Part shown: positions 3,406 through 59,772 of the stretch, one piece after another
How the letters are laid out: each line of letters begins with the position of its first letter
Position numbering within the stretch: the first letter of the stretch is position 1
Virus record (IMG/VR): IMGVR_UViG_3300021963_000036
Source of the DNA: a virus
Lineage: Duplodnaviria; Heunggongvirae; Uroviricota; Caudoviricetes
Reading direction: 5' to 3' (one strand)
Length of the DNA stretch: 64,000 nt
The notes under the pieces: generated by a model
What the model saw: the letters and a program-made list of their open reading frames with translations, nothing else
Told to the model about the DNA's origin: nothing
Database searches by the model: none
Position numbers and translations under genes: made by a program

Positions 3406-3518
3406 TACCAGCTCGAAAGAGTTTGTTGAATGGATGAGTGCAGTATGGAAGGCTAACGACCTTCGTAATCAGTTCCTCGAGCAACTTAAAGTTTGTGAGA
3501 GACTGAAACCAAATTGAG

Positions 3519-31280: not shown

Positions 31281-33407
31281 ATGTCTCTTCTCACTAAAAA
31301 GTCTATCCTCGCCCGTCTGCTCGCGAATGAAAATGTCGCTGTTGAGCAGACGAACCATCACACAGCTTTCTTCGATGTCACCAACCGCGTGCTCGGTCTT
31401 CCGTTCTGGAAGGACATCGACAAAGATCTATACGATCTTCTAGTCGGCCACGAAATCGGCCACGCTCTCTTCACTCCGGCTGACGGCTGGCATTCCTGCA
31501 CTACCGATATTCCCGGTTGCCCTCGTGACTACGTGAACGTCGTTGAAGACATCCGCATCGAAAAGAAAGTCCTGAGCAAGTATCCAGGGCTGCTCGCTTC
31601 GTTCATGCGCGGCTACCAAGATCTTCTCAATCGCGACTTCTTCGGTCTTTCCAAGAAAGAGATCAACAAACGTTCCTTCATGGATCGCTTGAACGTCTTC
31701 TCTAAGTCTCGCGGCTTGGTGAAAGTCCACTTCAATGAAAAAGAACAACCCTACGTTGATATGGCCATGGCCGTAGAAACTTGGGAAGATGTTATCGAAG
31801 CTTGCCGCAAAATCTACGAATTCGTCAAGGGCGAAATTCAAAACGAACAAAATGCTGATCCTGACGAACAAGCATCTGGTATGCCTTCGAAGGTGATCAT
31901 CAAAGCCGGTAAGCCAAATGAAAAAGGTGAAGAGCTTTCGAAAGAAGAGATGGAAGCCATCGTGAATGGCGACATCGAAGTTGAGATCGACACCGAGTCC
32001 TTCGAGGCAGCAGCTGGTGAAGAAGGTGAAGATGGCGACGAAGGTCAAGACGGTCAAGGTTCTTCTTCGAATGAAGAAGGTGATGAGGAAGCTGAAGCTG
32101 CTCCTAGTGTTTCCACTGGTGCTGGTTCGGCTGCTGATCAAGTCGACACTGACAAAGAGTTCCGGAACAACTTCATGAAGAAGCTGGTCGACTCAGTCAA
32201 TACCGGCGGAAAGACTCTCTATGCAAAAGGTCCTACCGTTCAACAAGCAATGGCGACCATCAGCAGCTACGAAGATGTGCACGACTCTCGCTTCAGCAAA
32301 CTTCGTGCTGAAGACGAAAAGTACAAGAAAGCTCTTGCTGAAACGAAGCAGACCGTGATGCTTATGGTCAAAGAATTCGAAATGCGTAAAGCAGCTTATC
32401 GCTCTGCTCGAGCTCGAGTGTCGACCAAAGGTAGCCTCGACGTTAATCAACTCCACAAGTACAAGTACGACGACCAGCTCTTCAAGCAAGTCACCTACTT
32501 GGCAGACTCTCAATCTCACGGCATGATGATGCTGGTGGATTACTCCGGATCGATGTCGAATACCATCAAAAGTGTTCTCAAGCAGATCGTAGTGATGGTT
32601 GCCTTCTGCAAGCGAGTGAACATTCCCTTCGAAGTTTACGGCTTCACATCTATGGTAGCCGGTCCAAGGTTCGAAGCGAAACGCTTGATGGTTGAACGTA
32701 CCGCTTCGAAGTTGACGAGCGTCAGCATGGTGGGTTCTCATATTTTCAAGTTGATCGCCTCTGATATGTCGAAGCCAGTCTACGAAGAAGCATATCGTTC
32801 ACTGTGGGCTCAAAGCTACTATGGCGCAAGCTACCGTGGCAACCTCGAGCAAATGAATGGTACTCCACTCAACACTTGCCTGTTGACTATGATGCAAGTA
32901 ATCCAAACTTTCAAAGCTAAGCACAAAGTCCAGAAGATGAACTTCATCACTCTGACTGACGGTGAAAGCGAAAACATGGGTGTTCAGTACGGTATCGACA
33001 CTCAGAACCGCGGGCAGAAGTGTATCGTTAACCACATGGGCTTCAACATCGAGCAAATGTTTGGTTATGGACATGCAGCTCTGAACACGAAGAACATCTT
33101 GGAATGCTTCACCAAGATGGGTGTTCGCACTATGAACTACTACGTCAACCCTGATCGCTACCAGCTCAGCCAAAAAGCTGTAAAAGAGTTGAGCAAAGAA
33201 GGTCTGTCAGTGGTCGACAATGATGGTGGCTATGATCGCCGGTTCTACCTCCGCAATAACTCTGAGCAACTGACTGGTGTTGTGGCTGACATGGACTTTG
33301 ATGATACGGCCACTTCGTCGAAGATCGCTCGCGAATTCTCCAAGCATGCCACTTCCAAGCAAAACGCTCGGACCTTGGCTTCGAAATTCGCCGAAGTTAT
33401 TTCGTAA
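31281..33407 (+). CDS. cobT: CobT-like protein with C-terminal von Willebrand A domain (partner of the MoxR ATPase)
   Basis: 708 aa; central acidic low-complexity linker; C-terminal MIDAS-type LVDYSGSMSN; N-terminal HEIGH motif. Confidence 0.6.
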   Translation: MSLLTKKSILARLLANENVAVEQTNHHTAFFDVTNRVLGLPFWKDIDKDLYDLLVGHEIGHALFTPADGWHSCTTDIPGCPRDYVNVVEDIRIEKKVLSKYPGLLASFMRGYQDLLNRDFFGLSKKEINKRSFMDRLNVFSKSRGLVKVHFNEKEQPYVDMAMAVETWEDVIEACRKIYEFVKGEIQNEQNADPDEQASGMPSKVIIKAGKPNEKGEELSKEEMEAIVNGDIEVEIDTESFEAAAGEEGEDGDEGQDGQGSSSNEEGDEEAEAAPSVSTGAGSAADQVDTDKEFRNNFMKKLVDSVNTGGKTLYAKGPTVQQAMATISSYEDVHDSRFSKLRAEDEKYKKALAETKQTVMLMVKEFEMRKAAYRSARARVSTKGSLDVNQLHKYKYDDQLFKQVTYLADSQSHGMMMLVDYSGSMSNTIKSVLKQIVVMVAFCKRVNIPFEVYGFTSMVAGPRFEAKRLMVERTASKLTSVSMVGSHIFKLIASDMSKPVYEEAYRSLWAQSYYGASYRGNLEQMNGTPLNTCLLTMMQVIQTFKAKHKVQKMNFITLTDGESENMGVQYGIDTQNRGQKCIVNHMGFNIEQMFGYGHAALNTKNILECFTKMGVRTMNYYVNPDRYQLSQKAVKELSKEGLSVVDNDGGYDRRFYLRNNSEQLTGVVADMDFDDTATSSKIAREFSKHATSKQNARTLASKFAEVIS

Positions 33408-33423
33408 AGCTACACTTAGGGGG

Positions 33424-33452
33424 TTGACACTTCTCCCTAAGTGACTTATATA
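33424..33452 (+). promoter_or_regulatory. sigma70-type promoter (TTGACA-17-TATATA) whose -35 lies in the loop of a 7-bp hairpin
   Basis: ttgaca at 33424-33429; CTTAGGG (33415-21) pairs with CCCTAAG (33435-41). Confidence 0.5.
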
Positions 33453-33487
33453 GAATAAGTAAGCTAATCAAAACTCAGGAGACTTAA

Positions 33488-34624
33488 ATGTCCGACATCC
33501 AGTTCTTCATCGATGCTATCCGCAGTGCCAACAACGGTTCTTCTACCTTCACTCGTAAGCAGATGTTTGACTTCGCGAAAACCGCCGGTGTTAAGCAGAA
33601 AATCGTTTGGGAGACGATCAAATCTCGCCCGTCTCAGACTCGCGGCATCGTTGATCTTTCCGCTACAGTTACTCAATTGCATCCCATCCAAGATGCTCCT
33701 GCTCCAGCCGTAAAAGCCAAAGTTCAGTCGACTTCCAACGAAGACTGCTATGTTCCTTCGAAGTTGAAGACCTACGTCAAGTGGGGCCACGCAAAAGACA
33801 TCACCCAGATAATCGCTTCTCGTATGTTCTATCCTGTCTATGTCACCGGCCTCTCGGGCAATGGTAAGACCATCATGATCGAACAAGCTTGTGCTGACCT
33901 CAACCGCGAATACATCCGAGTTCAAATCACTCCTGAGACTGATGAAGACGATCTGATCGGCGGCTTCCGTCTTGTGAATGGTGAAACGGTCTTTGCCAAG
34001 GGTCCGGTTATCAAAGCGATGGAAGCCGGTGCGATCCTGCTTGTCGACGAGATCGACCGCGGTTCGAACAAGTTGATGGCTCTTCAAGGTGTCCTTGAAG
34101 GTAAGCCGGTCATGATCAAAAAGACTGGTGAGGTTATCATCCCTGCTAATGGCTTCAACATCATTGCCACGGCAAACACCAAGGGCAAAGGTTCTGAGGA
34201 TGGCAAGTTCATCGCAGCGACCATCATCGACGAAGCTTTCCTTGAACGGTTCACCATCACGATGGAACAACCTTACCCCAACCAGTCGGTTGAAAAGAAA
34301 ATCGTGATGAAGCACATGGAACTCTTCGGCGAAGTTTCTGACGAGTTTGCAGAGCTTCTGACCAAGTGGTCTCAGGCTATCCGCAAAACTTATGAAGACG
34401 GTGGTGTGGACGAACTCATCTCCACTCGTCGACTGTGCCACATCGTTCAAACTTTCTCGATCTTCAAGAACCGGAAGAAAGCAGTTGAACTCTGTGTGTC
34501 TCGCTTCGATGATGATACCCGCACGGCCTTTGTTGATCTTTACACGAAGATCGATGCTACTGCTCCGACGGTTACTCCGGTTGCTGCAGATGAAGAAGAC
34601 TACCGCAATGACTCTCCCTTCTAA
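33488..34624 (+). CDS. cobS: CobS-like MoxR-family AAA+ ATPase
   Basis: Walker A GLSGNGKT, Walker B ILLVDEIDR, sensor region ...IIATANT. Confidence 0.8.
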   Translation: MSDIQFFIDAIRSANNGSSTFTRKQMFDFAKTAGVKQKIVWETIKSRPSQTRGIVDLSATVTQLHPIQDAPAPAVKAKVQSTSNEDCYVPSKLKTYVKWGHAKDITQIIASRMFYPVYVTGLSGNGKTIMIEQACADLNREYIRVQITPETDEDDLIGGFRLVNGETVFAKGPVIKAMEAGAILLVDEIDRGSNKLMALQGVLEGKPVMIKKTGEVIIPANGFNIIATANTKGKGSEDGKFIAATIIDEAFLERFTITMEQPYPNQSVEKKIVMKHMELFGEVSDEFAELLTKWSQAIRKTYEDGGVDELISTRRLCHIVQTFSIFKNRKKAVELCVSRFDDDTRTAFVDLYTKIDATAPTVTPVAADEEDYRNDSPF

Positions 34625-35679: not shown

Positions 35680-35946
35680 ATGACTCGAGTTGTTCAACGT
35701 GTTCAGATGACTAGCGATACCGTTACCATCCGAACTTCCATCGGCGCTTTTAAAGTTCTTACTGTTCATGAACGAGAAGGCGTTCCAACCGTTTGGTACG
35801 AAACACTTGAGAAGGCGGTTGTTCCCGTCGAAGTAACATTCACTATTGTACCAACTGGCGGTGCGGTTCCTGATCACTCGATATATGTCGGTACTGCATT
35901 TGTGGACAACAGAGCCTCACACATCTATCAACATCCAGACGTGTGA
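35680..35946 (+). CDS. hypothetical protein
   Basis: 88-aa ORF coupled to the upstream stop. Confidence 0.35.
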   Translation: MTRVVQRVQMTSDTVTIRTSIGAFKVLTVHEREGVPTVWYETLEKAVVPVEVTFTIVPTGGAVPDHSIYVGTAFVDNRASHIYQHPDV

Positions 35947-36111
35947 GTAGAACATGAGTGAAGTCAAAACAGAAGAAGAAAAAGACGAGGGCTACACTCA
36001 GCGTGAATGGGATCGTACCGTAGGTATCGGAAAGGTTCCAGAAGAATATGCTAAACGCATCAAAACATATGAAGAAAAACAACGTAGGTATGATCGAGGC
36101 TAAACTTTTTG

Positions 36112-36141
36112 TTGACATTAACGAGTAAGTAGTGTATAAAT
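36112..36141 (+). promoter_or_regulatory. sigma70-type promoter (TTGACA-17-TATAAAT, also matching T4-late TATAAATA) driving the ORF-free ssrA-like region
   Basis: ttgaca at 36112-36117, tataaat at 36135-36141. Confidence 0.5.
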
Positions 36142-36159
36142 AGACTTGTAGTGATGATA

Positions 36160-36485
36160 TTCACTGAACACGTTCTGGACTCGGGGGCGGTACCCGAATC
36201 GTCCACCACAGATACCGGTCAGTTTATGGAACCCTTGGATGTATGAAGTATTGCTATCATATGGCGAGATAAGTTTATGTAAACAAGAAGATCGGTATCT
36301 TTGCTGGGCGATAAATAGGATCGACAGGCGAACTAGGCAGGATGGAGCTATCGGGATCTAAGCACCGTTATCGCGAAGAAACTTACAAATGCAAATGAAA
36401 ATTCTGCACCTGTAGCTTACGCTCTCGCAGCCTAATCTACATGGGTATGGGTTCCACCTCGAAACAGAACGGGCCCGCTTACACA
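36160..36485 (+). ncRNA. ssrA: circularly permuted (two-piece) tmRNA, ssrA-like: acceptor piece ~36160-36208, intervening hairpin 36210-36300, coding piece ~36306-36485
   Basis: No ORF longer than 30 codons across ~400 nt. GGAC-TCGGG-GGCGGTA-CCCGA-ATCGTCC-A-CCA at 36177-36208 reads as T-arm, 3' acceptor strand, discriminator and CCA. GGGCGAT at 36306-36312 pairs with ATCGTCC to give a G3:U70 wobble, and is followed by AAATA-GGATCGACAGG (E. coli tmRNA 5' end is GGGGCUG-AUUCU-GGAUUCGACGGG). Tag ORF at 36391-36435. CGTTCTG at 36171-77 pairs with CAGAACG at 36465-71. Confidence 0.65.
36391..36435 (+). other. tmRNA tag reading frame: GCA resume codon ... TAA, encoding ANENSAPVAYALAA*
   Basis: GCA AAT GAA AAT TCT GCA CCT GTA GCT TAC GCT CTC GCA GCC TAA; A-rich stretch before the resume codon as in E. 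coli; ends in the ClpXP/SspB-type YALAA. Confidence 0.6.
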
Positions 36486-36513
36486 ACACACATTTACACA
36501 TGAGGCATATAAC

Positions 36514-37377
36514 ATGGCAAATTCACGTCGCATTACTGCACAAGCTGCAGTTATCCCAACTTACATCGGTGGATACGTTCAACCCGCTACTTCTGCAATT
36601 CCTACAGGCAATCTTAGCACTTTGACAATCCCTTCACCAATTACCGCACCGGCAAATCTAGTCGACGCTTTCAAACCGAAGCGTGCAGGTAAGAACCCTA
36701 AGCTTTCTCATATCGTATTCGTTCTGGATGAATCGTCTTCGATGTCGTCCTGCTGGGATCAAACTGTTTCTGGCTATAACGAATACCTGAAAGCTCAAAA
36801 GGAAGATGCTGAGAAGACCGGCATTGAGACTTTGGTATCTCTTTACAAATTCAATGGTTATGATGTCAAAGCTATCTTTGATCGTCAGAACGTTCAAGAA
36901 GTTCAGCCACTTGATAAGAATAGCTATCGCCCAAGTGGTGGTACTAACCTTCATGATGCTATGGGTGGCGTCATGATGAAGATCAACTTGCTTCTTTCAG
37001 AAAAGAAGAAAGCTGATCGCGAATCGGTTATCATCACTGTTCTAACCGATGGTGAAGAAAATCAATCCCGCACTTTCCGCTCGACCGACGTTAAAGGTAT
37101 GGTCGAAAAAGCTGAAGGCAAGAACTGGGGCTTCATGTTTCTTGGTGCTAACATCGATGCGTTCCATGCTGGCTCTGCTCTTGGTTTCAATGTGAATAAC
37201 ACCATGCAGTTCGCAACTGCTAATGCCGCTGAGACTATGCGTGGTGCTTCTGCTATGACTTCTCGTATGAAAGGTGCATATGCTTCTGGTATGGACACCG
37301 GTTCTACTTATGCAGCTACAGCATTCTTTGACAGCGAACGTTCTGCTGCTGTAGGTGACAAAGATGCAGGGAAATAA
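36514..37377 (+). CDS. von Willebrand factor A (VWA) domain protein
   Basis: MIDAS motif FVLDESSSMSS, downstream TDGEEN, GANIDAF. Confidence 0.65.
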   Translation: MANSRRITAQAAVIPTYIGGYVQPATSAIPTGNLSTLTIPSPITAPANLVDAFKPKRAGKNPKLSHIVFVLDESSSMSSCWDQTVSGYNEYLKAQKEDAEKTGIETLVSLYKFNGYDVKAIFDRQNVQEVQPLDKNSYRPSGGTNLHDAMGGVMMKINLLLSEKKKADRESVIITVLTDGEENQSRTFRSTDVKGMVEKAEGKNWGFMFLGANIDAFHAGSALGFNVNNTMQFATANAAETMRGASAMTSRMKGAYASGMDTGSTYAATAFFDSERSAAVGDKDAGK

Positions 37378-38137: not shown

Positions 38138-39118
38138 ATGAAATTTCTATCAATCTCTCTTTTAGCACTTACTGCAGCATTCCCAGCGTTTGCTCGTGAT
38201 AACGTTCACGTCGTCGGATCTTCAACAGTTCTTCCATTCGCTGTAATCGCTGCAGAGTCGTTTGGCGAGAACTTTGAGTTTGTAACTCCAGTCGTTGAAG
38301 GTGGTGGCACCGGTGCTGGCATCAAAAAGTTCTGTGAAAGCGCTGATGAAGAATCTGTTGACATTGTGAACGCAAGTCGTGCAATGAAAGACGAAGAAAA
38401 AGCTGATTGTGCTGCTGCTGGTGTTACTGACATCACTGAAGTAAAAATCGGTTATGATGGTATCGTCTTTGCTTCTGACATCAATGGCCAACCTTTTGCA
38501 CTAACACCAGCTATGGTATATCTTGCAATCAACAAAGACTCAGTGATTCCTTCATGGGATGTCGTTGATGCGTCATTGCCAGCTCAGAAAATCTCGATGC
38601 TAATTCCAGGAACTAAGCACGGTACTCGTGAAGTGTTCGACATCAAGGTTCTTATCCAAGGTTGTAAAGACACTGGAATGTACGAAGAGATCCTTGCAAA
38701 AGTTAGTGATGCTAAGGAAGCTGAAAAAGAGTGTGCATCTGTACGTACAGATGGTGCTGTAGTCGAGATCGATGGCGACTACACTGAAACTCTGAGCCGT
38801 ATGAAGACTGAACCTTCTTCAGTTGGTGTGTTCGGTCTTTCGTTCTATGAGAACAACTCAGACGTTCTTCATGTCGCAACGATCAATGGTGTTGAGCCTA
38901 GCGTACAAACTATCAGCGATGGTAGCTATCCAGTCAGTCGTCCTCTGTTCTTCTACGTGAAGAACGCGCACCTTACTTCAATTCCAGGTCTGCCTGACTT
39001 TGTGAAGTACTTTGTAAGCGACGAAGTTGCAGGTCCTGGTGGTATGCTTGAAGAGTATGGTCTAGTTCCAGATCCTGAACTGAGCGCAACTCAAGAGGCA
39101 GTCTCAGCTATTAAATAA
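38138..39118 (+). CDS. pstS: periplasmic phosphate-binding protein PstS
   Basis: Signal peptide; VVGSSTVLP ... GGGTGAGI motifs typical of PstS. Confidence 0.85.
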   Translation: MKFLSISLLALTAAFPAFARDNVHVVGSSTVLPFAVIAAESFGENFEFVTPVVEGGGTGAGIKKFCESADEESVDIVNASRAMKDEEKADCAAAGVTDITEVKIGYDGIVFASDINGQPFALTPAMVYLAINKDSVIPSWDVVDASLPAQKISMLIPGTKHGTREVFDIKVLIQGCKDTGMYEEILAKVSDAKEAEKECASVRTDGAVVEIDGDYTETLSRMKTEPSSVGVFGLSFYENNSDVLHVATINGVEPSVQTISDGSYPVSRPLFFYVKNAHLTSIPGLPDFVKYFVSDEVAGPGGMLEEYGLVPDPELSATQEAVSAIK

Positions 39119-40003: not shown

Positions 40004-40227
40004 TGCAAGTAGAACTGACGGCGGAAAGTATTCTTCGTGAAGTCAGTAAGTATGTGAATGAAGAAGTGTCATACATTGATGCCCTTGTACACTATGCTGA
40101 CATTCACGGGATTGAAGTAGAAGTAATTGGCGACATTGTTCGTCGCAGCCAAATCATGAAAGCAAAAGTTCATGAAGACGCTGAGAAACTCAATTTAGTA
40201 GCAAAAACTCAGAGGTTACCAATCTAA
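40003..40227 (+). CDS. hypothetical protein (sits where T4 has gp33/dsbA)
   Basis: 74-aa ORF immediately upstream of the gp59 gene. Confidence 0.3.
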   Translation: MQVELTAESILREVSKYVNEEVSYIDALVHYADIHGIEVEVIGDIVRRSQIMKAKVHEDAEKLNLVAKTQRLPI

Positions 40228-40832
40228 TGTCTATCTATTCAACGCAAGATGCATTTGGAATATACATCTACTATCTTGCGTTGAAAAGACACTTTACCAC
40301 AGATTACGACTTCTTTAAGTATAACGGCAAAGTGAAATCTTCTCAGCAAGCTTTCGAAAACCGTAGAGACAAGTTCTTTTTCTACAAACTCTCTAAGCGT
40401 AAAGATGCTAAGGAATTCATCCTTGCTAACATGATTGCCGAACCTACATTGTGGGTAGGTGATATGCTCGACAATGATCGAGCAGAACAGATCTTTCAGG
40501 AATGGGAAAAGCGTCAGCAGTCTTTATCTCACGTATTCCAGAATGATCTATCGGAGTTGAAAGAAGACTTCAATTCCAACTTACTTGTGAAAGATGGACA
40601 ACATCCGTATCTGCTGAAACTCTATAATATGAGACGAGTCAATATCGAGACTCTTGTGATCATCGACGACCTCGTAGGAAATTTTTCTTACTGGGAGAAG
40701 AAAATTGCGGACCCAATCATCTTTCCGAGTATAAATAGATTTGTTGGCAAGGTTAGACCATTCATCAAGTACGAACGTCCTAAGATGAAGTCTATCTTAA
40801 TCAACAAATTTCAATCGCAACAAGCCGCATAA
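40227..40832 (+). CDS. 59: gp59-like helicase loader
   Basis: RRDKFFFYKLSKRKDAKEFILANMIAEPTLWVGDM (T4 gp59: RRDKYFFQKLSEKYKLKELALIFISNLVANQDAWIGDI); adjacent to gene 32 as in T4. Confidence 0.75.
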   Translation: MSIYSTQDAFGIYIYYLALKRHFTTDYDFFKYNGKVKSSQQAFENRRDKFFFYKLSKRKDAKEFILANMIAEPTLWVGDMLDNDRAEQIFQEWEKRQQSLSHVFQNDLSELKEDFNSNLLVKDGQHPYLLKLYNMRRVNIETLVIIDDLVGNFSYWEKKIADPIIFPSINRFVGKVRPFIKYERPKMKSILINKFQSQQAA

Positions 40833-40859: not shown

Positions 40860-41810
40860 ATGTCGTATCTCGATAAACTCAAATCCAATCGTTCGTCTTC
40901 TTTTGACAAGCTTAACTCACAGCTACAGAAGACCATTGGTGGCCAATCCAAAAATAGTGATGACAAATACTGGAAACCCGATGTCGATAAGGCAGGTAAC
41001 GGGTATGCAGTTTTGCGTTTTCTACCAGCACCTGAAGGTGAAGATTATCCGTTCGTTAAGATGATCGACCACGGTTTCCAAGGTCCTGGTGGTTGGTATA
41101 TCGAAAACTCACTGGCTACTATCGGCCAAGAAGATCCTGTTTCTGAATTCAACTCTAAGCTCTGGAATGCAAGTTCCGATGACGAGTCGAATGAACGTAA
41201 ACAAGCTCGTAAGCAGAAGCGTCGTACTAACTTCACGTCTAACGTGTACGTTGTAAAAGACTCTGCTAATCCTGCCAACGAAGGTAAAGTATTCCTTTAC
41301 AAGTACGGCAAGATGATCATGGAGAAGCTTCAAGAAGTCATGAACCCGCAGTATGAAGGTGACGAAAAGGTCAATCCTTTTGATCTGTGGGAGGGTGCTG
41401 ACTTCAAATTGAAGATCCGCAATAAGGACGGCTATCGTAACTACGATCGTTCGGAATTCAGCGAACCTGCTCCTATTACTAATCCAAACGGAAAAGAGCT
41501 CAGCGATGAAGAACTTGACTCAGTCATTGGTTCGATGCATTCGTTGAAAGAAATCGTCGATCCTAAAAACTTCAAGAGCTACGATGAACTGAAGGCTAAA
41601 CTCCATAAGGTTCTCGGTCTTGATGGCGGGGCACACGCACCCATGAAATCCACCGCCGAGGATGACGACAAGGAGATGGACTTCACTCCGAAGTTCAAGG
41701 AGCGCCCTGCACCTAAACTAGAGGAAGCTCCATCTCCTGCCTTTAATCCAAGCATGGATGACGACGAGGATACTCTCGACTTCTTCAAGAGCCTCGCTGC
41801 TGAAGAATAA
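40860..41810 (+). CDS. 32: gp32 single-stranded DNA-binding protein
   Basis: DKAGNGYAVLRFLPAP...FVKMIDHGFQGPGGWYIE (T4: DNAGNGQAVIRFLPSK...FAILVNHGFKKNGKWYIE); acidic C-terminal tail. Confidence 0.9.
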   Translation: MSYLDKLKSNRSSSFDKLNSQLQKTIGGQSKNSDDKYWKPDVDKAGNGYAVLRFLPAPEGEDYPFVKMIDHGFQGPGGWYIENSLATIGQEDPVSEFNSKLWNASSDDESNERKQARKQKRRTNFTSNVYVVKDSANPANEGKVFLYKYGKMIMEKLQEVMNPQYEGDEKVNPFDLWEGADFKLKIRNKDGYRNYDRSEFSEPAPITNPNGKELSDEELDSVIGSMHSLKEIVDPKNFKSYDELKAKLHKVLGLDGGAHAPMKSTAEDDDKEMDFTPKFKERPAPKLEEAPSPAFNPSMDDDEDTLDFFKSLAAEE

Positions 41811-48229: not shown

Positions 48230-49583
48230 TACAAACGGAATTAAACAGGCCGGATCATATACACTTGAGTCGTTCAAAATATCAAAGTTGGACGGATCGA
48301 AGAGTAGTGATATCAGACTTATCATACATTCATTTAATATAGTTGAATCAATGTCAACTGGTTCCATACGCGGAACTGCAATGGTATACGATTCGAGTGA
48401 TCTTATAACCACCTTTCCTTTAATAGGAGAAGAGTTGATCGAGATCACTTATACTGATTATTACGGCACTAAGCGAACTGATACGATGTTTCTATATGGC
48501 GTGACTGATGTCGGTTATGCTGCAGAGAGTAGCGGCAGCATGACTAAATATACACTCAGCTTTGCATCTCTTCCAAAAGTGCTTTCAGAAAATGTACGAG
48601 TACAGAAGACGTATAAACCGAATACTGTTGACAACTTTTCAAAGATTAGTGAATACGTTAAGTCTGTATACGACGAATATTATAAGAAACCAGTTGAAGA
48701 ATTAAATAAGACGCCTAAGAACATTGTAATTGAATCGACAGACGGCGCACAGGGATATGTTATTCCGCGTCTCACACCAGAACAGACAATGCACTTCTTT
48801 GCTCGAAAGGCTTATTCTGCAGCAAGCGACACTCAATCATTTAGATTCTTTGAAAGTCGCGAGATGTTCTTTTTTACTACAAATGAGTATATGATAGAAC
48901 GATTGAATCCAAATGCCGGTCGTCCAACAGATGGTCCAGGCGGTGGAGTTCAAATGTCAACTGATCAAGTTGTTGTTCCGATATTCACACGTAACTATAT
49001 GCCAGACCGTAGCGCTGATCGCCAATTAAGTGCGATGAGTGAACTATTAGCAATTGACTTCGGTGCGAAAGTAAACACCGTAGAAGATATTAATAAGGGT
49101 GCATACAAGAAAGCTACTTATGAAATCGACGTGATGCATGGCACAATCACTAAAACTGCATATGATCATACACAAACATTTAAAGAAGAAAAACAAAAAC
49201 TTGTTCATGACGTGTCATTTATAGACGAAAAAATCTCAAAGGAAAAAGAGAGATTTGTTGTAAAGGATTATGCTTCAATCGGTGCGACTCAGGGAACTGA
49301 TATACGCCCAGAGATGTATTATAGCAGCGTCTATAATGTTAAGCCAACAACGTTTTATCATTATGAACGTAATAAGATTACTGCTACAATATACGGTAGA
49401 AACAAGATTTTTGCTGGTAGTGTAATTGAAATCAAACTTGCAGAAGCAACTTCTCAAACTGATTCTGTTAAGATCGATAACGAGAGAAGTGGTAAATATA
49501 TTGTAGAGTCAGTTGAAAATAACTTTAATGAAAACATCTACACACAGAAATTGATTTTATCAAGAGGCGGTATCGGCGCATGA
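48222..49583 (+). CDS. baseplate hub protein candidate (possible gp27 counterpart)
   Basis: 453-aa ORF immediately upstream of the gp5 spike gene, translationally coupled. Confidence 0.3.
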   Translation: MSDTNGIKQAGSYTLESFKISKLDGSKSSDIRLIIHSFNIVESMSTGSIRGTAMVYDSSDLITTFPLIGEELIEITYTDYYGTKRTDTMFLYGVTDVGYAAESSGSMTKYTLSFASLPKVLSENVRVQKTYKPNTVDNFSKISEYVKSVYDEYYKKPVEELNKTPKNIVIESTDGAQGYVIPRLTPEQTMHFFARKAYSAASDTQSFRFFESREMFFFTTNEYMIERLNPNAGRPTDGPGGGVQMSTDQVVVPIFTRNYMPDRSADRQLSAMSELLAIDFGAKVNTVEDINKGAYKKATYEIDVMHGTITKTAYDHTQTFKEEKQKLVHDVSFIDEKISKEKERFVVKDYASIGATQGTDIRPEMYYSSVYNVKPTTFYHYERNKITATIYGRNKIFAGSVIEIKLAEATSQTDSVKIDNERSGKYIVESVENNFNENIYTQKLILSRGGIGA

Positions 49584-51439
49584 TAGGCGAAAATGGCTTT
49601 GACAATTTAGTATGGTTCATGGGTCTTGTTGAAGACAACAACGACCCGCTGAGCGGACGTGTGCGTGTGAGAGCATTTGGTTTTCATCCTCCCTACTCAG
49701 ACGGTTTAGTTGCGACTGATGATCTTCCTTGGGCACATGTTGTTCGTGATAGTAAGTTTGCTTCTGTTCCAGACAATGGAGATTTAGTCGTTGGCTTCTT
49801 TATGGATGGACGCGATGCACAACATCCTATCGTAATCGGCGTCTTGAACAGTGCTAAGTTCTCTCTACCAACAACTTCGAATCCATATTCTTCGCCAGGA
49901 AATACCGGTCGCACTCCACCTACTGGTCAAGGTAAACCTGTTCCAGTCGGACAATCTGCAAACAAAACACTAGAGCCATATCAACGTGCTTTTCTTGATG
50001 CGACTGCTTCAAAGGAATCTGGTGGTGCTTATAACATTCGATACGATGGAAAAGCTGGATCTACATTTGACTTATCTACTGGACAACATCCAAATGTAAG
50101 AGTTCCTCTTGGTAATGGTCAGTATTCAACAGCTGCTGGTCGTTATCAATTCACATATAGTACATGGCAAGAAATTTCTGGAGGTGCGCCATTCACACCA
50201 GAAAACCAAGACTACTACGCATATCAACTCGCAAAGCAGCGCTATCCGGGAGATCTCGATGCTGAGCTACAGTCAGGTGGGCTTAACTCAAACATCCTGA
50301 CTGCATTGACTCCAACTTGGGCGTCATTTGAATCTGGAAATCAGGCATCAATCATCGCCACTTATAATCAAAGTATGGCAGGCCAAGGTGTATCAACTCC
50401 TACAGCAAATACCGCGAATCCAGTAGCTGCTTACGAGAATCCTTATGTCGCTCCTTCTCAAGATGCGATTGACAACTTCGGCAACGGTGCTATGCCACCA
50501 CAGATCTCTGGCGAAAATCTACAGTACACTCCTGCAGTGATCCAAGCCACGGCTAGAAAAGATGTTGCATTCTCTGGTACTGGAGCTTATACAGCAAGCG
50601 AACCAGGTGTCCCAGTGTCAGGTTCAATCAAAAGTTCTGTATGGAGCACTCGTCATGGAGGTTCTCATATTGAGCTATCCGGTAAAACCTCAGATGAAGA
50701 ATATATAAGCATCACCCATGCAAGCGGCTCACGTGTTACTCTTGACTCTCACGGTAACGTTACCGTTAAAGCGTTTGGTAAGCTTCATCTTTCATCTGAA
50801 GGTGTGAGTGAAGACATCTCTGATGGCACAAAGATTAGTAATCACAAAGGTGGTTATATGCTTGAAGTTTCAGGAGGTAACATGGATGTTACCGTAATGG
50901 GCGATTTAAACTTCACTGCATCAGGTGACATTAAACTGAATGCTGGTAGAAAAATATCGATGTCTGCAGGTGATGCTATCGATGCAGCAGGATCTAAGAT
51001 CGCTCTTACTGCAAAGGTAGATGCAATTGATATTGTTGCTGCGCAGAAACTCGCGCTCTATTCTGGTGGAACTGGATTAAGTATTCAGAGTGTCGAAGAC
51101 ATGTTTGTGCAAGCGAAGAACCTTAATTTGAAAGGCGACACAAATGCTGCGCTTCAAGCAAAAGGCGGTATGCTTAGCTTACAAAGTAAAGGATCACTTG
51201 CTCTTGCTGCTGAAGGTAATATTGGAATCGGCGCAGACGGCAATGTTGTTGCAAAGGGTGCTCAAATCCATCTGAATGATGGTGCTCCAGCTGCTCCAGC
51301 ATCAGCCGGAGATGCTTTGGCCGCTGTTGCAGCAAATGTACCAGATCCAGTTGGTGCTGGTATCTCAACTCCTACAAAACCACTTCCAACTCCTGGTCAT
51401 ATCTCACCTGAAATGTTAGACGAAAGCGGACCACAATGA
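49580..51439 (+). CDS. 5: gp5-like baseplate central spike with lysozyme-like domain and C-terminal beta-helix
   Basis: N-terminal OB-like region (RVRVRAFGFHPP..DLVVGFFMDGRDAQHPIVIGVL); central SGGAYNIRYDG...AAGRYQFTYSTWQ hydrolase-like region; C-terminal ~250 aa of Gly/Ser/Ala-rich beta-helical repeats. Confidence 0.7.
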   Translation: MIGENGFDNLVWFMGLVEDNNDPLSGRVRVRAFGFHPPYSDGLVATDDLPWAHVVRDSKFASVPDNGDLVVGFFMDGRDAQHPIVIGVLNSAKFSLPTTSNPYSSPGNTGRTPPTGQGKPVPVGQSANKTLEPYQRAFLDATASKESGGAYNIRYDGKAGSTFDLSTGQHPNVRVPLGNGQYSTAAGRYQFTYSTWQEISGGAPFTPENQDYYAYQLAKQRYPGDLDAELQSGGLNSNILTALTPTWASFESGNQASIIATYNQSMAGQGVSTPTANTANPVAAYENPYVAPSQDAIDNFGNGAMPPQISGENLQYTPAVIQATARKDVAFSGTGAYTASEPGVPVSGSIKSSVWSTRHGGSHIELSGKTSDEEYISITHASGSRVTLDSHGNVTVKAFGKLHLSSEGVSEDISDGTKISNHKGGYMLEVSGGNMDVTVMGDLNFTASGDIKLNAGRKISMSAGDAIDAAGSKIALTAKVDAIDIVAAQKLALYSGGTGLSIQSVEDMFVQAKNLNLKGDTNAALQAKGGMLSLQSKGSLALAAEGNIGIGADGNVVAKGAQIHLNDGAPAAPASAGDALAAVAANVPDPVGAGISTPTKPLPTPGHISPEMLDESGPQ

Positions 51440-53040
51440 GCTGTAACACATTCAATTCTCCTACATCAAAATTCTCTGAAGCAGCTTTAACGACTGATCA
51501 GTTGAGAGCAAATCTGTATAGTTTCAATAGTCTTATAGATGTTCAAAACGACCCAGTAAAACGCTACGACGTTGTAAGTGTATCACTTGCAATAAGCGGT
51601 ACTTATACACTGTTTAATAATCTTACAAATAAAGATGAATATGAATACCTACACGATAGAATTAATCGTGGTATTATTCCTTCTTCTGAATATGCTGACT
51701 TCCTAGATAAAAGCAAAATAAGTTTAGATGCAATTACTGCTATGATGAATGGATTACTTATTGGTCTACAACCATCAGATTATCTATCACAATTAGATCA
51801 ATACTATAATAAGAATTTTGCGAATAGTCAAACAGGTGGTTTCTGTTCACTATTTAACGGCGCAGTAATGCAGTTACTCGGATTAGTTTCATCTGCAGCA
51901 AATATGATTAATCAATTGAAAAATGGTCTTGCTTCTATTATTGCCCAATTGATGTCTTTTAAAGATTTGTTACATAATCTAGTTGATAAGTTAAAAGATA
52001 TGATGCTTAAGCAGATTCAGAATATTGTAAATCAAGCTATGGGTGCAGTATCAAAAGTAATTGGCGCAGCAACTTTCTTTATGAACAAAGCAAAACAAGT
52101 TCAAGCTTTCTTTAGTGATGCTAATATCGCGAGCCTAAAAGCAAAGATCGAAGAGATAATGTCTCAAATGGCCGGCGGATATGAAAAACTTACACCAGAA
52201 GTGATAGCATATCTTCTATTTAGATTGTGTCAATTAAGTGAAGTAATAACTAATTTTATGAAGTCTCCAGTCGATGGTCTTAATGCTTTAATTAGTAACT
52301 ACGCAATGCAAGAAATGGTATTGACAAACTTCTCGAATGAAGCATCAATGAGAGCTGTACAAGCCGGTGGGTATCGCATGGATCCATTCGAAGTAGCTCG
52401 ACTTAGATCTGAAGCTGCTTCTAAAATCAATTCTGATTATTCTGGAGAAGGTTCTGTTGATCCTTCAAGTTATATCACAATGGGATTCACACAAGAAGAA
52501 ATCGAGATGGCGATGAATATTACTGACGCTGGTAATAAGTATCTAAAATTTCAACCTCAAGTTCTAAGTCAAAATGACCCCGTCGAAGGGGCTGGTTATA
52601 AGTATGTAAAACATGAAGTATGGATGAGAATATTTAGAATATCAAGAAGACTTGGTATCCAACTATATTGCAATAGCGGATATCGTAGTCCTACATATAA
52701 CGCTAAGCAGCCAGGTTCTGCAAAGAGCAGTCTTCATATGTCGGGGATGGCTTGTGATATTAGCATGGATAACGTGCCGAAATCTAGAATTCCGGAATAT
52801 ATCAAATACGCAAGTCAAGAGGGATTCCAAGGTATGGAATACTACGCTTCTGGTAACTTCGTACACACTGACATTGGTAATAGACGTAGATGGTATCCTG
52901 GCAATGGTGCTACACCAAATGCTATTGAAGATGCTATACAAATTCATATGAAAGACGGATTTAGAAGAGGCAGACCTGCTGATCCAATTCAACCAGCAGC
53001 TCCATCTACTCCAGCAACACCACGCTTTGGACTTCAATAA
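51436..53040 (+). CDS. baseplate/tail protein with C-terminal peptidase M15 (VanY-like peptidoglycan peptidase) domain
   Basis: C-terminal SGYRSPTYN ... SSLHMSGMACD ... FVHTD (zinc-site H-x6-D ... H pattern). Confidence 0.55.
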   Translation: MSCNTFNSPTSKFSEAALTTDQLRANLYSFNSLIDVQNDPVKRYDVVSVSLAISGTYTLFNNLTNKDEYEYLHDRINRGIIPSSEYADFLDKSKISLDAITAMMNGLLIGLQPSDYLSQLDQYYNKNFANSQTGGFCSLFNGAVMQLLGLVSSAANMINQLKNGLASIIAQLMSFKDLLHNLVDKLKDMMLKQIQNIVNQAMGAVSKVIGAATFFMNKAKQVQAFFSDANIASLKAKIEEIMSQMAGGYEKLTPEVIAYLLFRLCQLSEVITNFMKSPVDGLNALISNYAMQEMVLTNFSNEASMRAVQAGGYRMDPFEVARLRSEAASKINSDYSGEGSVDPSSYITMGFTQEEIEMAMNITDAGNKYLKFQPQVLSQNDPVEGAGYKYVKHEVWMRIFRISRRLGIQLYCNSGYRSPTYNAKQPGSAKSSLHMSGMACDISMDNVPKSRIPEYIKYASQEGFQGMEYYASGNFVHTDIGNRRRWYPGNGATPNAIEDAIQIHMKDGFRRGRPADPIQPAAPSTPATPRFGLQ

Positions 53041-53051
53041 AGGAATACGTC

Positions 53052-53459
53052 ATGGCTATCACACCATTAACGCGTAGAAAAGAAACATATTCAGACTTTT
53101 ATAAAGATCTGACTCTTAGTCCAATCAATGCTGACTTAGCAAGAAAGACTGATGAGGAATCGATCAAAGAGGCAATTCGTAATATCGTATTGACTGATCG
53201 TGGAGAAAGGTTATTTCAACCAGAACTCGGTTGCGATATTCGAAAGATCCTGTTTGAAAACATCGGACCTGAAACTATTGTTACTGCACGCGAAATGATT
53301 AAGTCGGCAATCAGCGCGTATGAACCGAGATGTGCTCTTCTCGGTGTTGACGTGTACGGCGCAAAAGATGACAATGTAATCAATATCACCATTACGTTCC
53401 ACATTATAAATAAACAAGAGCCAATTACACTCAATCTAACAGTTGACAGGGTACGATAA
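53052..53459 (+). CDS. 25: gp25-like baseplate wedge protein (GPW/gp25 family)
   Basis: 135 aa; RNIVLTDRGERLFQPELGCDIRKILFEN matches the gp25/GPW core. Confidence 0.65.
   Translation: MAITPLTRRKETYSDFYKDLTLSPINADLARKTDEESIKEAIRNIVLTDRGERLFQPELGCDIRKILFENIGPETIVTAREMIKSAISAYEPRCALLGVDVYGAKDDNVINITITFHIINKQEPITLNLTVDRVR
53404..53411 (+). promoter_or_regulatory. candidate T4-late-type promoter TATAAATA inside the end of gene 25, upstream of gene 6
   Basis: tataaata 48 nt upstream of ATG 53459. Confidence 0.3.
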
Positions 53460-55237
53460 TGACGTCAAATGCACCAATAACAGAATTAGACTTTAATCAG
53501 ATTAAGACTAATCTGAAGACGTACATGAAGGGCCAAGCTCAGTTTGCTGACTACAACTTCGAAGGATCGAACATGAATGTTCTCCTCGATGTTCTATCAT
53601 ATAACACTTTTCAAAATGGATTCTTCACTAACATGGCAATGAACGAGATGTTTCTCGATTCAGCTCAATTGCCAGCTTCTGTTGTATCACATGCAAAAGC
53701 TCTAAACTACGTCCCTCGTTCGCGTACGTCAGCTAGAGCTAAAATCAACGTGACTCTCGCTTGTAACGATACTCCAACGTTCGTGGTAATTCCAGAGAAA
53801 ACAAAGTTTGTTGCTAAGTGCGGCACAAAGACCTTTAACTTCTACAATGATACAGCTGTTACGATCTATCCGGTTAATGGTGTCTATACCTATTATGGTC
53901 TTGAAGTCTACGAAGGTCGTTATGTTAGTGAATCATATTTAGTAAACGGAACGTCTCAAAAGTATATTCTATCAAATTCAGATATTGATACATCAAGCAT
54001 CCGTGTTTACGTAAAAGAATCGTCAAGCGCCACAGTAGAAACTGAATACTCACGTCAGACTTCACTCTTTGGTTCAGCTAATGACTCAACTGTCTTTTAT
54101 ATACAAGCACAAAACGATACACAATATGAATTGATCTTTGGAGAAAATATATTCGGCATTCAGCCATCAAACGGTAACGTAGTAAGAGCTGAATATCGTA
54201 TCACGGCAGGCGAAGAAGCAAACGATATCATTAGCTTCGTCCCAAGTGGAAATATCCAAGGCTATCCAGCGACGACTGTTTTGAGCCAGAAATCAACAGA
54301 TGGCTCAGAAAAAGAGGGTATTGAATCAATTCGATACTTCGCGCCACGAGCTTTACAAGTACAAGATCGTGCAGTTACCGAGCATGACTATGAGATCCTT
54401 CTTAAGAACCACTTTCCAGAGATTCAAGCTGTTTCAGTTTATGGTGGAGAAGAATTGAATCCTCCACGTTACGGTAAAGTTATTGTCGCGGTAGATGTTC
54501 AAAACGCATATGGTGTTTCTGAAAATAACAAAGTAAAGTATACAACGTATTTGCGTGATAGAACACCCATTGGTATTCAGCCTGTTGTGATCTCGCCTGA
54601 ATTTATGTATCTTGCGGTAAATACAAACGTTTCTTATAACACAAAGAAAACTGCAAGCTCAGAAGCTACAATTCGTCAATCAGTACTCGATTCTATTCTT
54701 GCTTATAATACCGCAAACCTGTCTAACTTTAAAACAGTGTTTAGAGCTTCACGCCTTTCAGCAGCAATTGACGACGCAGATATAAATGTTCTATCTAATG
54801 ATTTAGATGTTCTTGCGATTATTCCTTTGAATCCTAATCTAAATGTTACAAACAATTTTGATATTACTTTCAATAACGCTCTTAATATTGACCATAGCCT
54901 ATCGTCAAATGAAGTTCTATCTGAACATTTACCAGCTGTAAAGTCTTCAACTTTCACATATGGTGGTTCAATTGGCTTTATTCAAGACAATGGTAATGGT
55001 GTGCTACAGATTATTAAAGCATCTGGTGCCTCATTCGTTTATCTAAACGCAAATATTGGTTCAGTAAATTATGAAACTGGTAGAGTAATTATCAAGAAGT
55101 TTAATATCTCTTCATACGACGGAACAGAAGTTAAACTTTACGGTAGAACAAGAACATCTACTATTGAACCGCCAAAGAACAGAATATTGACTATTCGCCA
55201 AGAAGATATTACTATCAATGTCGCCGGAGTTAACTAA
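53459..55237 (+). CDS. 6: gp6-like baseplate wedge protein (Baseplate_J family)
   Basis: 592 aa directly after gp25, as in most T4-like phages. Confidence 0.55.
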   Translation: MTSNAPITELDFNQIKTNLKTYMKGQAQFADYNFEGSNMNVLLDVLSYNTFQNGFFTNMAMNEMFLDSAQLPASVVSHAKALNYVPRSRTSARAKINVTLACNDTPTFVVIPEKTKFVAKCGTKTFNFYNDTAVTIYPVNGVYTYYGLEVYEGRYVSESYLVNGTSQKYILSNSDIDTSSIRVYVKESSSATVETEYSRQTSLFGSANDSTVFYIQAQNDTQYELIFGENIFGIQPSNGNVVRAEYRITAGEEANDIISFVPSGNIQGYPATTVLSQKSTDGSEKEGIESIRYFAPRALQVQDRAVTEHDYEILLKNHFPEIQAVSVYGGEELNPPRYGKVIVAVDVQNAYGVSENNKVKYTTYLRDRTPIGIQPVVISPEFMYLAVNTNVSYNTKKTASSEATIRQSVLDSILAYNTANLSNFKTVFRASRLSAAIDDADINVLSNDLDVLAIIPLNPNLNVTNNFDITFNNALNIDHSLSSNEVLSEHLPAVKSSTFTYGGSIGFIQDNGNGVLQIIKASGASFVYLNANIGSVNYETGRVIIKKFNISSYDGTEVKLYGRTRTSTIEPPKNRILTIRQEDITINVAGVN

Positions 55238-58200
55238 TGTCACTAGAAAATTTCACCAAAGAAATTTCTCAACTTATTGAGTCGCAATTTCCTGCGGTTT
55301 ACCGTGAAGATGGTGAAACATTAGTTGCGTTCATTCAAGCGTATTATGAATTTCTAGAAAGTAGTAATAAGTACACTTATAATGTTGGTCGTCAAATGTT
55401 TGATATTGACGACATTGACACTACTCTTGATGAGTTTATATCTCATTTTAAAGAGATGTATCTAGCTGATTTTCCTTATGTATTAAAAACAGATAAACGT
55501 TTTGCAATTAAGCACATTGGTGATTTTTACAAAGCAAAAGGTTCCGAAAGATCTTTAAAGCTCTTGATGAAACTTATCTTTGATCAAGAAGTTACTATTT
55601 ACAATCCAAGTTATGATGTGCTGAGAGCATCAGACTCTCAGTGGGTTAAACCGAAGTATATTGAAGTTACAAAGACTGATCGTAACAAAACATTCCTCAA
55701 CAAGCAAATCACCGGTGTGAAATCTGGCGCGAAAGCTTTTGTTGAGAGTGTTGTTAGAAAACGCGTCAAAGGTAAAGTTTTTGACGTCTTATATCTCAGT
55801 TCATTACAGGGTGACTTTGAAACTAACGAGAATGTAACTGATGATGGAATAATTGAGGGTTCTCCAAAGATTGTTGGATCTCTTTCAGAAATTGTTATTG
55901 ACCTTGGTGGCAGAGAAAATGCCATCGGTGACGTTTTTAGTGTTATCACATCAGAAGGTTTACAAGGCAGAGCAAAAGTTGCAAGTGTTAGAGCTGCGAC
56001 CGGCCGCGTTGACTTTTCAATAGCTAACTCCGGCTGGGGTTATACTACAGACGCTAACACTGATGTCTATATATCAAAAGCATTGTTATTTGTTAACAAC
56101 TCGGTGAATGATAGTTCAACTGCAAATACACTATACTATACTTACGAAACAGTATATCAGCCAGTAGAAGTAGTTAAAGTAATTTCTGGTGCTACTGTGC
56201 TTTCAGCCAGTCTTGGAAGTTACCTACTTGGGATGGCAAACACTACATCACAAGTCGCGAATGGCACTATTGTAGCTATTGCAAACACTGATTCTAATGG
56301 CGCAATCACTACTGCTGCGACGTCAAATGGTATTATCACTGTGATAACAACCTCTGGTACTTTTGCAGATCAGCGTGTTCTAACCATGAACACTACTCCG
56401 AATTTTTCGACTGGAGAGATTTTAAGCGAACAGAATCAATACGAACTTGGATACACAAATCTCGTTGGTAGCGGATTCCAAGTTGGAGAGATCGTAGAAC
56501 AGTACACTCGTGAATCCGTCTCAAATACTACTACTAACTATGCATTTGGTACAGTGTCAGTCTCCGGTTCTGGTACTATGACTCTTGAGCCAGCTTGGGG
56601 CACGTTTGATACTTCTGCATCAGCAGCTCTTGTTGTCGGTAAGACGTCTGCAACATCAGCTCTACCTACTTCGTTTGTTATTACGACTGCTGGTGCAAAA
56701 GGCACAATCACAAATATCACTGGCAACGATGTCACAGTTACCACACAATACGGTACCTGGGATATTAGTAATAAAGTACGTAGTGATAAGACACGAGTTA
56801 TTCGAACGGTAACTAACAGTGTAGTCGGAGGAGCAGCGATTGTCTATCTAAATGGAGTGTCAACATCTAATGCTGTACTTACATCGGCTAATGCTACACC
56901 GGTTTCAGGTATTGTTGTAGGGCAAAACACTACAGCAATCGGACTGTACGGAAACACATCACCGTTCTACTTTTCAAATGCTTATCCTACGTATGTATCT
57001 ACTAAGAGATCAGAATTAATATCACCTCCACGGTATGCAAATAATGATATTATTGAAATCAATAAACAAGTTTTACGTATTGCTGGTGGTATTGGCGCTA
57101 ATTTTGAAATTGGAACTATAGAAGATATTGAATCTAACGTCACTCTTTACACTGATATTATTGGCGCAAATAACGTGAGTGGATCAAGATTCGTCGATAT
57201 GAAAATCGATGGTAGAGGTTCTGGTTTTGGATATGTTACAAGTATGACTATCAATAGTGGTGGAACCGGTTACGCCAACCTACAAACAGTTTCATTCTCA
57301 GGTGGTGGTTATGCTGCCGGTGATCCACTTATATCGGCTTCTGGTACAATTACGACGAACGCTTCTGGTGTAATCACTCTTATCACGATAGATACTAATG
57401 GTGAAGGTTATTATGATTATCCTACAGTAGTTCTACCATCTAATGGTGGTGGCACAGTCGCGAATGTTACACCGAATATGACGTTCGGTTTTGGATTCCC
57501 AAAAAACCCAACTGCAAGTGTTTCAAACTTAATCGGTGATGCGCTTAACACAAGTATAGCGAATCTTGGTTCTATTTCAATCTTGAGTAAAATCAACCCG
57601 GGAACTGCATACACAGCAGATCCTTTTGTGTCTGTTCGCAATAAGTTTGTTGCGTCCTACCAGAGAAGGGATTTTATTCTAAACGTAACAAATATAGTTG
57701 GCTCGTTCTCAGTTGGTGAAGATATTGTTCAAGTAATAGGTGGAACAACTACGTTCAAAGGAACAATAAAAGCTTTAAGCATTTCTGGAGGAGCAGGCGC
57801 AATCTATGTTTCGCGTAAACTACTTGGAACTAGCTTTAACTTAGCATTCCCTATTAGAGGTTCATTGACCTCAGCTCAAGCAACTATTTCAAGTGTAGTT
57901 GACGACAACGATTCTAGATACATTGGCGATAATGCGAATGTAAGTGCTATAGCAATTTCTGCGAATGGCATTGCAACGTCTCTTGAAATTGTCTCGTCTG
58001 GATTCGGTTATATAAACGACGGTCCAGTTGTTCTAGAATACATTCCTACAGTAAATAAACCTGCAAATCCTTATATCATTACTGGCATTTCGCAGACACG
58101 TAAGCAAGGTCAAGGTCTTGGATACTGGAAGACTACTACTTCTCACTTAAATTCAGAGAAGAAAATCCATGACAATAAATACTATCAAGAATACTCTTAT

Positions 58201-59762: not shown

Positions 59763-59772
59763 GGAATAACTA

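Follow-up and report, generated by a model that had tools for sequence, protein, structure and literature searches.

Two-piece transfer-messenger RNAs (tmRNAs), encoded in the order acceptor piece, spacer, coding piece, occur in alphaproteobacteria (Rfam family RF01849); that of Caulobacter crescentus was reportedly described by Keiler, Shapiro and Williams in 2000, and the processing of such RNAs is said to have been treated by them and, in 2004, by Sharkady and Williams. The stretch of viral DNA analysed here, a 64-kb window of IMG/VR record IMGVR_UViG_3300021963_000036, has the same order at 36148–36477. Judged by its sequence, this locus is very probably a functional, circularly permuted tmRNA gene (ssrA) of the alphaproteobacterial type in an uncultured T4-like myophage. 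An earlier, sequence-only reading of the window implied that the gene was novel, but the same kind of gene had already been published, from the same genomic position, in marine T4-like phages. Buchholz et al. (2022; PMC9004378) reported an alpha-type ssrA in two pieces from Melnitz, a T4-like phage of OM43 (Methylophilales), and from contigs resembling pelagimyophages; their count came to 53 two-piece tmRNAs in 18,146 phage genomes, 50 of the 53 being aquatic. The tmRNA database holds 79 unique bacteriophage tmRNA sequences (PMC11915505).

Besides the order of its parts, the window gene shares with the alphaproteobacterial tmRNA the T loop GGCGGUA, the D-loop analogue AAAUAGGAUCGAC, the G3:U70 pair, a tag of the form AN(D/E)N...ALAA and the motif AACAGAA near the 3′ end. 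The T loop, which the sequence-only reading had called non-canonical, is in fact the RF01849 consensus. Unlike the bacterial genes, that of the window is carried by a lytic phage, and it has a shorter acceptor piece. The RF01849 model has three inter-piece helices, of which only P2a aligns convincingly; the outer P2 helices carry marks of non-standard pairs, and a local 5′ hairpin occupies the sequence that they would use. A hairpin of different sequence is seen by eye at this place in two related contigs (L007 and L001), with loop lengths that vary and shift the alignment.

Like the window, Melnitz is a T4-like myophage with ssrA upstream of the gp59–gp32 module. Its gene (MZ577097 45984–46436) scores 106.7 bits against RF01849, compared with 102.7 bits for that of the window, and both are of the permuted alpha type. 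The Melnitz promoter, TTGACA-17-TATAAATA, has the same design and spacing, and the 14-residue Melnitz tag, ANDNYVPVDYALAA, is identical to the window tag, ANENSAPVAYALAA, at 9 of 14 positions. The two loci differ in several respects. In Melnitz, ssrA is followed by gp33 (the late-transcription coactivator), gp59 and gp32, whereas in the window the tmRNA is separated from gp59 by VWA, pstS and other genes. Directly 3′ of the Melnitz tmRNA stands a glutamine riboswitch aptamer (RF01739, 52.8 bits); in the window this riboswitch is absent at the gathering threshold and at E ≤ 1. The 5′ strand of the acceptor stem is GGGCGAU in the window and GGGGGCG in Melnitz, and the T loops differ by one base. 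Over its first 44 kb the window has a G+C content of about 44%, and its gp59, gp32 and baseplate gp6 proteins are 38, 49 and 36% identical to those of Melnitz.

Mycobacteriophages also encode tmRNAs, either one-piece or lacking a coding sequence (CDS-less), but in the standard gene order (e.g. DS6A, PMC11915505). The DS6A RNA has no tag frame and is reported to inhibit the host tmRNA (PMC11915505), whereas the tag of the window gene is intact. Since earlier publications already cover the kind of gene, the type of phage, the genomic position and the design of the promoter, the novelty of the window gene is modest. Particular to it are the lack of a riboswitch, the genes before gp59, the short acceptor piece and an acceptor stem that, together with this T loop, no bacterial or archaeal species representative was found to have.

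ARAGORN called one gene across the window, a permuted tmRNA at 36115–36526 with exactly the tag read from the letters alone, ANENSAPVAYALAA. Two Rfam matches exceeded the gathering thresholds in the window, both at this locus, over the full length of their models and at about twice the gathering score: RF01849 alpha_tmRNA at 36108–36479 (102.7 bits, E = 6e-27, cut-off 50) and RF04321 tmRNA_permuted at 36148–36435 (94 bits, E = 7e-17, cut-off 47). The permuted flag of ARAGORN agrees with the swapped order of the tRNA-like halves, the 3′ half (36177–36208) preceding the spacer (36209–36305) and the 5′ half (from 36306). Each element named in the sequence-only reading was found in place when 35900–36700 was read, and together these elements are far beyond chance. 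The features of the locus are as follows.

36112–36142, + strand: promoter, with TTGACA (36112–17), a 17-nt spacer and TATAAAT (36135–41; TATAAATA at 36135–42)
36148–36208, + strand: acceptor piece, about 61 nt; the RF04321 match begins at 36148
36150–54 and 36161–65, + strand: 5′ hairpin of the acceptor piece, AGUGA with UCACU
36171–77, + strand: 3′ strand of helix P2a, CGTTCTG, from covariation
36177–80, + strand: GGAC, start of the tRNA-like 3′ half, read directly
36181–85 and 36193–97, + strand: T stem, TCGGG with CCCGA, around the T loop GGCGGTA (36186–92)
36198–204, + strand: acceptor 3′ strand ATCGTCC, then discriminator A (36205) and encoded CCA (36206–08)
36209–36305, + strand: intervening spacer, 97 nt, predicted to be excised
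36210–17 and 36293–300, + strand: spacer-closing hairpin, AGATACCG (RNA AGAUACCG) with CGGTATCT (RNA CGGUAUCU)
36306–36477, + strand: coding piece, with acceptor 5′ strand, D-loop analogue, P2a 5′ strand, PK1 region, tag open reading frame (ORF) and 3′ pseudoknot (PK2)
36306–12, + strand: acceptor 5′ strand GGGCGAT (RNA GGGCGAU), then AAATAGGATCGAC, with the D-loop analogue AAAUAGGAUCGAC
36325–30, + strand: P2a 5′ strand CAGGCG, pairing with 36171–77
36391–36435, + strand: tag frame, from resume codon GCA (36391–93) through 14 codons to GCC (36430–32) and TAA (36433–35), giving ANENSAPVAYALAA
36443–36477, + strand: PK2, with stem 1 GGGU (36443–46) and ACCU (36456–59)
36448–54 and 36471–77, + strand: PK2 stem 2, UGGGUUC with GGGCCCG, from a per-sequence search
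36462–69, + strand: invariant loop of PK2, AAACAGAA

The secondary structure was assessed in an alignment (A1) of 25 distinct viral sequences in which the spacer was trimmed to its ends. We counted pairs of a structure derived from the window, consisting of the acceptor stem, the T arm, P2a, the spacer hairpin and the 3′ pseudoknot, and used 500 shuffles as a control. Over the whole structure 91.7% of cells were paired, compared with 71.4% in the shuffles, and compensatory changes on both sides occurred at 26 of 36 pairs; none of the 500 shuffles reached any of the measures. When the partners were slid by 1–3 columns, pairing fell to 35–46%.

The single helices bear this out. The acceptor stem is 100% paired; its pairs 4–7 all covary, while pairs 1–3 are invariant (G1–C72, G2–C71 and G3:U70, with U:G at pair 3 in 25/25 sequences). 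The T arm, with a 5-bp stem and a 7-nt loop, is likewise 100% paired and has two covarying pairs, and the spacer-closing stem is 96.5% paired with compensatory changes at all eight of its pairs. Covariation therefore upholds three helices proposed in the sequence-only reading: the 7-bp acceptor stem with G3:U70, the T arm and the spacer hairpin. The inter-piece helix P2a (36171–77 with 36325–30) is 90% paired, with compensatory changes at five of six pairs. In PK2, stem 1 is 94% paired with two compensatory pairs, and AACAGAA is invariant. Indels blur stem 2 in the alignment columns. Searched for sequence by sequence, it was found in 37/37 distinct viral tmRNAs, with a mean length of 6.5 bp and widely divergent sequences (GCCGGA/UCCGGC, GGAGAGA/UCUCUCC and GCAACUU/AAGUUGC, next to UGGGUUC/GGGCCCG in the window).

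The closest relative of the window, contig L022, shows full synteny and protein identities of 40–83% (70–83% for most genes). Promoter, 5′ part of the acceptor piece and P2 are common to both. The T stem is CUGGG/CCCAG in L022 and UCGGG/CCCGA in the window, the acceptor stem GGGCUCG/CGGGUCC in L022 and GGGCGAU/AUCGUCC in the window, and each of these changes is compensated. The spacers of the two cannot be aligned; among the relatives in general the spacer resists alignment and measures 8–126 nt. The tag of L022 is ANENFAPKAYALAA, and its frame differs from that of the window by seven synonymous and two non-synonymous codons, as expected of a translated tag under purifying selection. Relatives keep an open tag frame of the same length, AN(E/D/T)N...ALAA. 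The 14-residue frame ending in YALAA that had been read from the window is the one that ARAGORN also gives. The tRNA-like and mRNA-like parts of the permuted ssrA are all under selection, and the gene has its own conserved promoter.

The exact 32-nt tRNA-like 3′ half of the window occurs in 14 IMG/VR contigs, whose downstream genes are syntenic with the window while their proteins are just 45–64% identical. That the 32 nt remain unchanged next to proteins so diverged was counted as a sign of selection. The permuted tmRNA tags of these relatives are ANENFAPKAFALAA, ANDNVATYEMALAA, ANENIAPTGFALAA, ANTNAPIEVIALAA and ANTNAAPKAYALAA. A relaxed pattern, made of an alpha-type T loop plus CCACCA, matched at least 120 IMG/VR contigs, and about 30 of the tmRNA loci fetched have a gp32 or gp59 homologue adjoining. 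Two of the tmRNA-bearing contigs carry further RNA elements. In L002, a tRNA whose CTA anticodon reads the amber codon (3042–3117; labelled Pyl by ARAGORN) belongs to an array of eight tRNAs about 10 kb upstream of the tmRNA. In L071, a manA RNA motif (RF01745, 65 bits; 3125–3431, − strand) and a tRNA adjoin the tmRNA.

Recent capture from a host was considered and rejected: the exact 32-mer has no match in 185,579 species genomes, and a relaxed bacterial pattern gave one match, in Stutzerimonas, which is not a tmRNA. Acceptor pairs 4–7 of the window (C–G, G–C, A–U, U–A) in combination with its T loop are absent from the 185,579 bacterial and archaeal species representatives.

The TTGACA-17-TATAAAT promoter noted in the sequence-only reading is present at 36112–36141 and is near-identical in L022. 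It is sigma-70-like; its activity and timing are predicted. A consensus promoter scan did not list it because the rule requires a T at position 6 of the −10 hexamer, which here is TATAAA; the motif is nonetheless present. The + strand of the window has about eight sigma-70-like sites of the form TTGACA-N17-TATAxx. The −10 element is also an exact copy of TATAAATA, the T4 late-promoter consensus. Because the promoter fits both classes, expression both early and late is possible. The + strand of the window has nine copies of TATAAATA and the − strand one, compared with about three expected per strand, at sites that include 201, 46668 and 53405 as well as 23804, 25301, 35539, 40730 and 61644. Three copies lie 39–54 nt upstream of ORF starts, baseplate genes among them.

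From what is established for two-piece tmRNAs we infer how the RNA would be processed, charged and used during infection. A single precursor would be transcribed from a start about 6 nt past the TTGACA-17-TATAAATA promoter, which would make the 5′ end of the acceptor piece the transcription start. GGGCGAU (36306–12) would pair with AUCGUCC (36198–204), and the hairpin of the 97-nt spacer would sit atop the acceptor stem. RNase P would cleave 5′ of G36306, and 3′ trimming to the encoded CCA (36208) would complete the loss of the spacer. Acceptor and coding pieces of about 61 and about 170 nt, the latter with a 3′ end that we place at the end of PK2, would then be joined by the acceptor stem and P2a. 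Excision of the spacer to leave two RNA pieces is a prediction for which the conserved closing hairpin speaks. The alanyl-tRNA synthetase of the host would charge the RNA via G3:U70, and host SmpB would bring it to ribosomes that have halted on damaged or nonstop mRNAs. Translation would restart at GCA 36391 and append ANENSAPVAYALAA, whose ALAA end would target the product to host proteases. The most likely benefit to the phage would be ribosome rescue sustained amid the shutdown of host transcription and RNA and the build-up of mRNA fragments.

Several observations weigh against a functional tmRNA. With a single E. coli sequence as probe, a weak test that covers 64 kb of the genome, no smpB was detected in the window; the RNA would therefore have to draw on SmpB from the host, and its compatibility with an alpha-type host system is assumed. 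No intrinsic terminator was found 3′ of the gene, so that the 3′ end must arise by processing or read-through. Of PK1, only the Rfam hairpin near 36350–65 was seen, with one non-standard pair. Moreover, a single-sequence minimum-free-energy cofold (36148–36480) did not recover the T arm.

This cofold did form a helix that the sequence-only reading had proposed between CGTTCTG (36171–77) and CAGAACG (36465–71), at the cost of destroying the T arm. It also paired the T-arm region with the PK2 region, contradicting the comparative structure. We set it aside because it destroys the invariant T arm, and treat it as a thermodynamic artefact. The two heptamers are indeed complementary, but their helix has no comparative support: 66.3% of its cells are paired compared with 67.1% in shuffles, and 422 of the 500 shuffles do as well. 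CAGAACG consists of the end of the invariant AACAGAA loop of PK2 and the first base of stem 2. In contig L005 the 5′ partner has changed to CGAUCAG and the P2a strand follows (CUGGCG), whereas AACAGAA does not. The case is a caution against relying on folding alone at this locus.

A modified or antagonistic tmRNA would compete for SmpB and alanyl-tRNA synthetase and would re-target tagging with its own tag or blunt the trans-translation of the host, where a supplementary tmRNA would simply add to rescue. Such a role would suit the freedom with which tag residues 5–10 vary among the phage relatives (SAPVAY, FAPKAF, VATYEM, IAPTGF, APIEVI) and an acceptor stem that no bacterial species representative matches. 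It would also have a parallel in the inhibition reported for the CDS-less tmRNA of DS6A (PMC11915505), and selective tagging of host proteins was raised as a possibility by Buchholz et al. (PMC9004378). However, every close relative retains the ALAA end, which proteases recognize, and the AN(D/E)N start, both of which bacterial alpha-type tags also have, and the tag frame is intact and under purifying selection. The identity elements of the tRNA-like domain are all canonical, and the RNA bears no mark of a defect. We consider this role improbable.

Still less probable, to the point that we give it hardly any weight, is a non-functional relic, a copy or fragment of a host ssrA left by imprecise excision or recombination and now decaying. 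Genes for tmRNA are common integration sites, and prophages contain ssrA fragments (PMC9004378). The gene described here, however, is complete, and lytic T4-like phages of a diverged clade keep it at one and the same position. All its helices are maintained by compensatory change, its promoter is its own and conserved, and none of the bacterial species representatives has its tRNA-like 3′ half.

The sequence-only reading stated that the gap holds no ORF of more than 30 codons, but mechanical ORFs do overlap it, with 31 and 40 codons on the + strand and 33–49 on the − strand; they lack conservation, since among relatives the spacer cannot be aligned and abounds in indels. That the gap codes for one or more small proteins and resembles a tmRNA by accident is next to inconceivable, since these 31–49-codon ORFs fall within the hypervariable spacer or run along the other strand, the 188-aa gene called in the equivalent gap of contig L138 is a separate homing-endonuclease insertion that the window does not have, and the covariance models match with E-values of 6e-27 and 7e-17.

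A mosaic tmRNA locus was seen in another strain. L138 (ENA ERZ27249287 k119_219165) is near-identical to the window, and its positions 1053–2000 are the equivalent of 36104–36513. The block from acceptor 3′ strand through spacer to acceptor 5′ strand has been replaced in it (CGGGUCC...GGGCUCG), as has PK2, and a 188-aa homing endonuclease (phrog_655, E = 1.4e-11) has been inserted in minus-strand orientation between tmRNA and VWA genes, where the metagenome pipeline had called it. The permuted order puts both acceptor strands side by side, so that one recombination can swap a complete paired stem. The mosaic suggests cassette exchange or homing-associated co-conversion, possibly driven by the homing endonuclease. 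Some of the changes between close strains that appear compensatory may thus be block exchanges and not stepwise mutations; the structural inference stays intact because pairing is kept in all lineages. The acceptor stem of the window is found in phages with proteins 45–64% identical and in no bacterial species representative. A long-resident, phage-evolving gene, with no recent host copy behind it and changing by cassette exchange, is a proposal that we put forward tentatively and regard as rather unlikely.

The surrounding genome is that of a T4-like phage. The order downstream is tmRNA, VWA, pstS, further genes, gp59 and gp32, with about 35 nt between the tmRNA and the next gene. The principal genes of the window are the following.

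1954–3405: nicotinamide phosphoribosyltransferase
31281–34624: cobT-like/cobS-like pair
36514–37377: VWA protein
38138–39118: PstS-like phosphate-binding protein
40227–40832: gp59 helicase loader
40860–41810: gp32 single-strand DNA-binding protein
49580–61818: baseplate hub and wedge proteins (gp5–gp8)

The auxiliary genes among them (nicotinamide phosphoribosyltransferase, cobT/cobS-like, VWA, PstS-like) are typical of aquatic T4-like phages. G+C content is about 44% in the first 44 kb, which include the tmRNA locus, and about 39% beyond. By amino-acid identity of baseplate gp6, the nearest cultured phages are Sinorhizobium phiM7, phiM12 and phiN3 (42%) and Caulobacter Cr30 (36%), alongside OM43 phage Melnitz (36%) and pelagiphage HTVC008M (34%). 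Searches of 50,697 phage records with megablast and with blastn of the locus found no close cultured relative at the DNA level, the matches being confined to gp32 at 71% and a 62-nt match in phage Phosso. With gp32, gp59 and baseplate genes present, and with nearest phages that belong to the T4 superfamily and of which none is close in DNA, the window holds as an uncultured T4-like myophage, and the T4-like assignment of the sequence-only reading stands. An identical VWA protein is encoded in contigs of several metagenome assemblies, one of them 129.5 kb long, and the contig that was compared letter by letter, L139, agrees with the window throughout.

Alpha-type tRNA-like domains, 81–91% identical to the 3′ half of the window, also occur in large Rhodobacterales siphophages (DSS3_MAL1, DSS3P8, vB_RpoS-V10, RcXuper) and in the Sinorhizobium jumbo phage Phosso, in lineages and genomic contexts unrelated to the window. 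Most of these genes are unannotated, although the DSS3_MAL1 record does annotate ssrA. Unannotated matches of 89% identity to the 3′ half lie in Roseobacter phage DSS3P8 (KT870145 9121–9156), Ruegeria phage vB_RpoS-V10 (MH015255 9231–9266) and Rhodobacter phage RcXuper (OP186293 3287–3322), and are probably tmRNA genes, to go by this likeness. The 469-kb genome of Phosso carries an unannotated alpha-type permuted tmRNA at about 349553–350242 of PV764938.1 (L145 554–1243, − strand). It scores 108 bits with RF01849 and 113 bits with RF04321, has a far longer spacer and was missed by ARAGORN.

The practical value of the locus lies in annotation: several deposited phage genomes hold copies that carry no annotation, and in the equivalent gap at least one gene caller predicted a protein. 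The window contributes a phage-borne two-piece tmRNA, well documented and structurally validated, from a T4-like lineage that is uncultured and was found in metagenome assemblies. Its conserved place near gp59–gp32 in many such phages argues for a selected role in infection and against accidental capture. Why lytic phages carry a tmRNA is a question already open in publications, and the window gene opens no new one. If the acceptor and tag variants were selected, for instance to evade a host factor that tells phage from host tmRNA or to alter the fate of tagged proteins, they would amount to a phage-specific branch of trans-translation.

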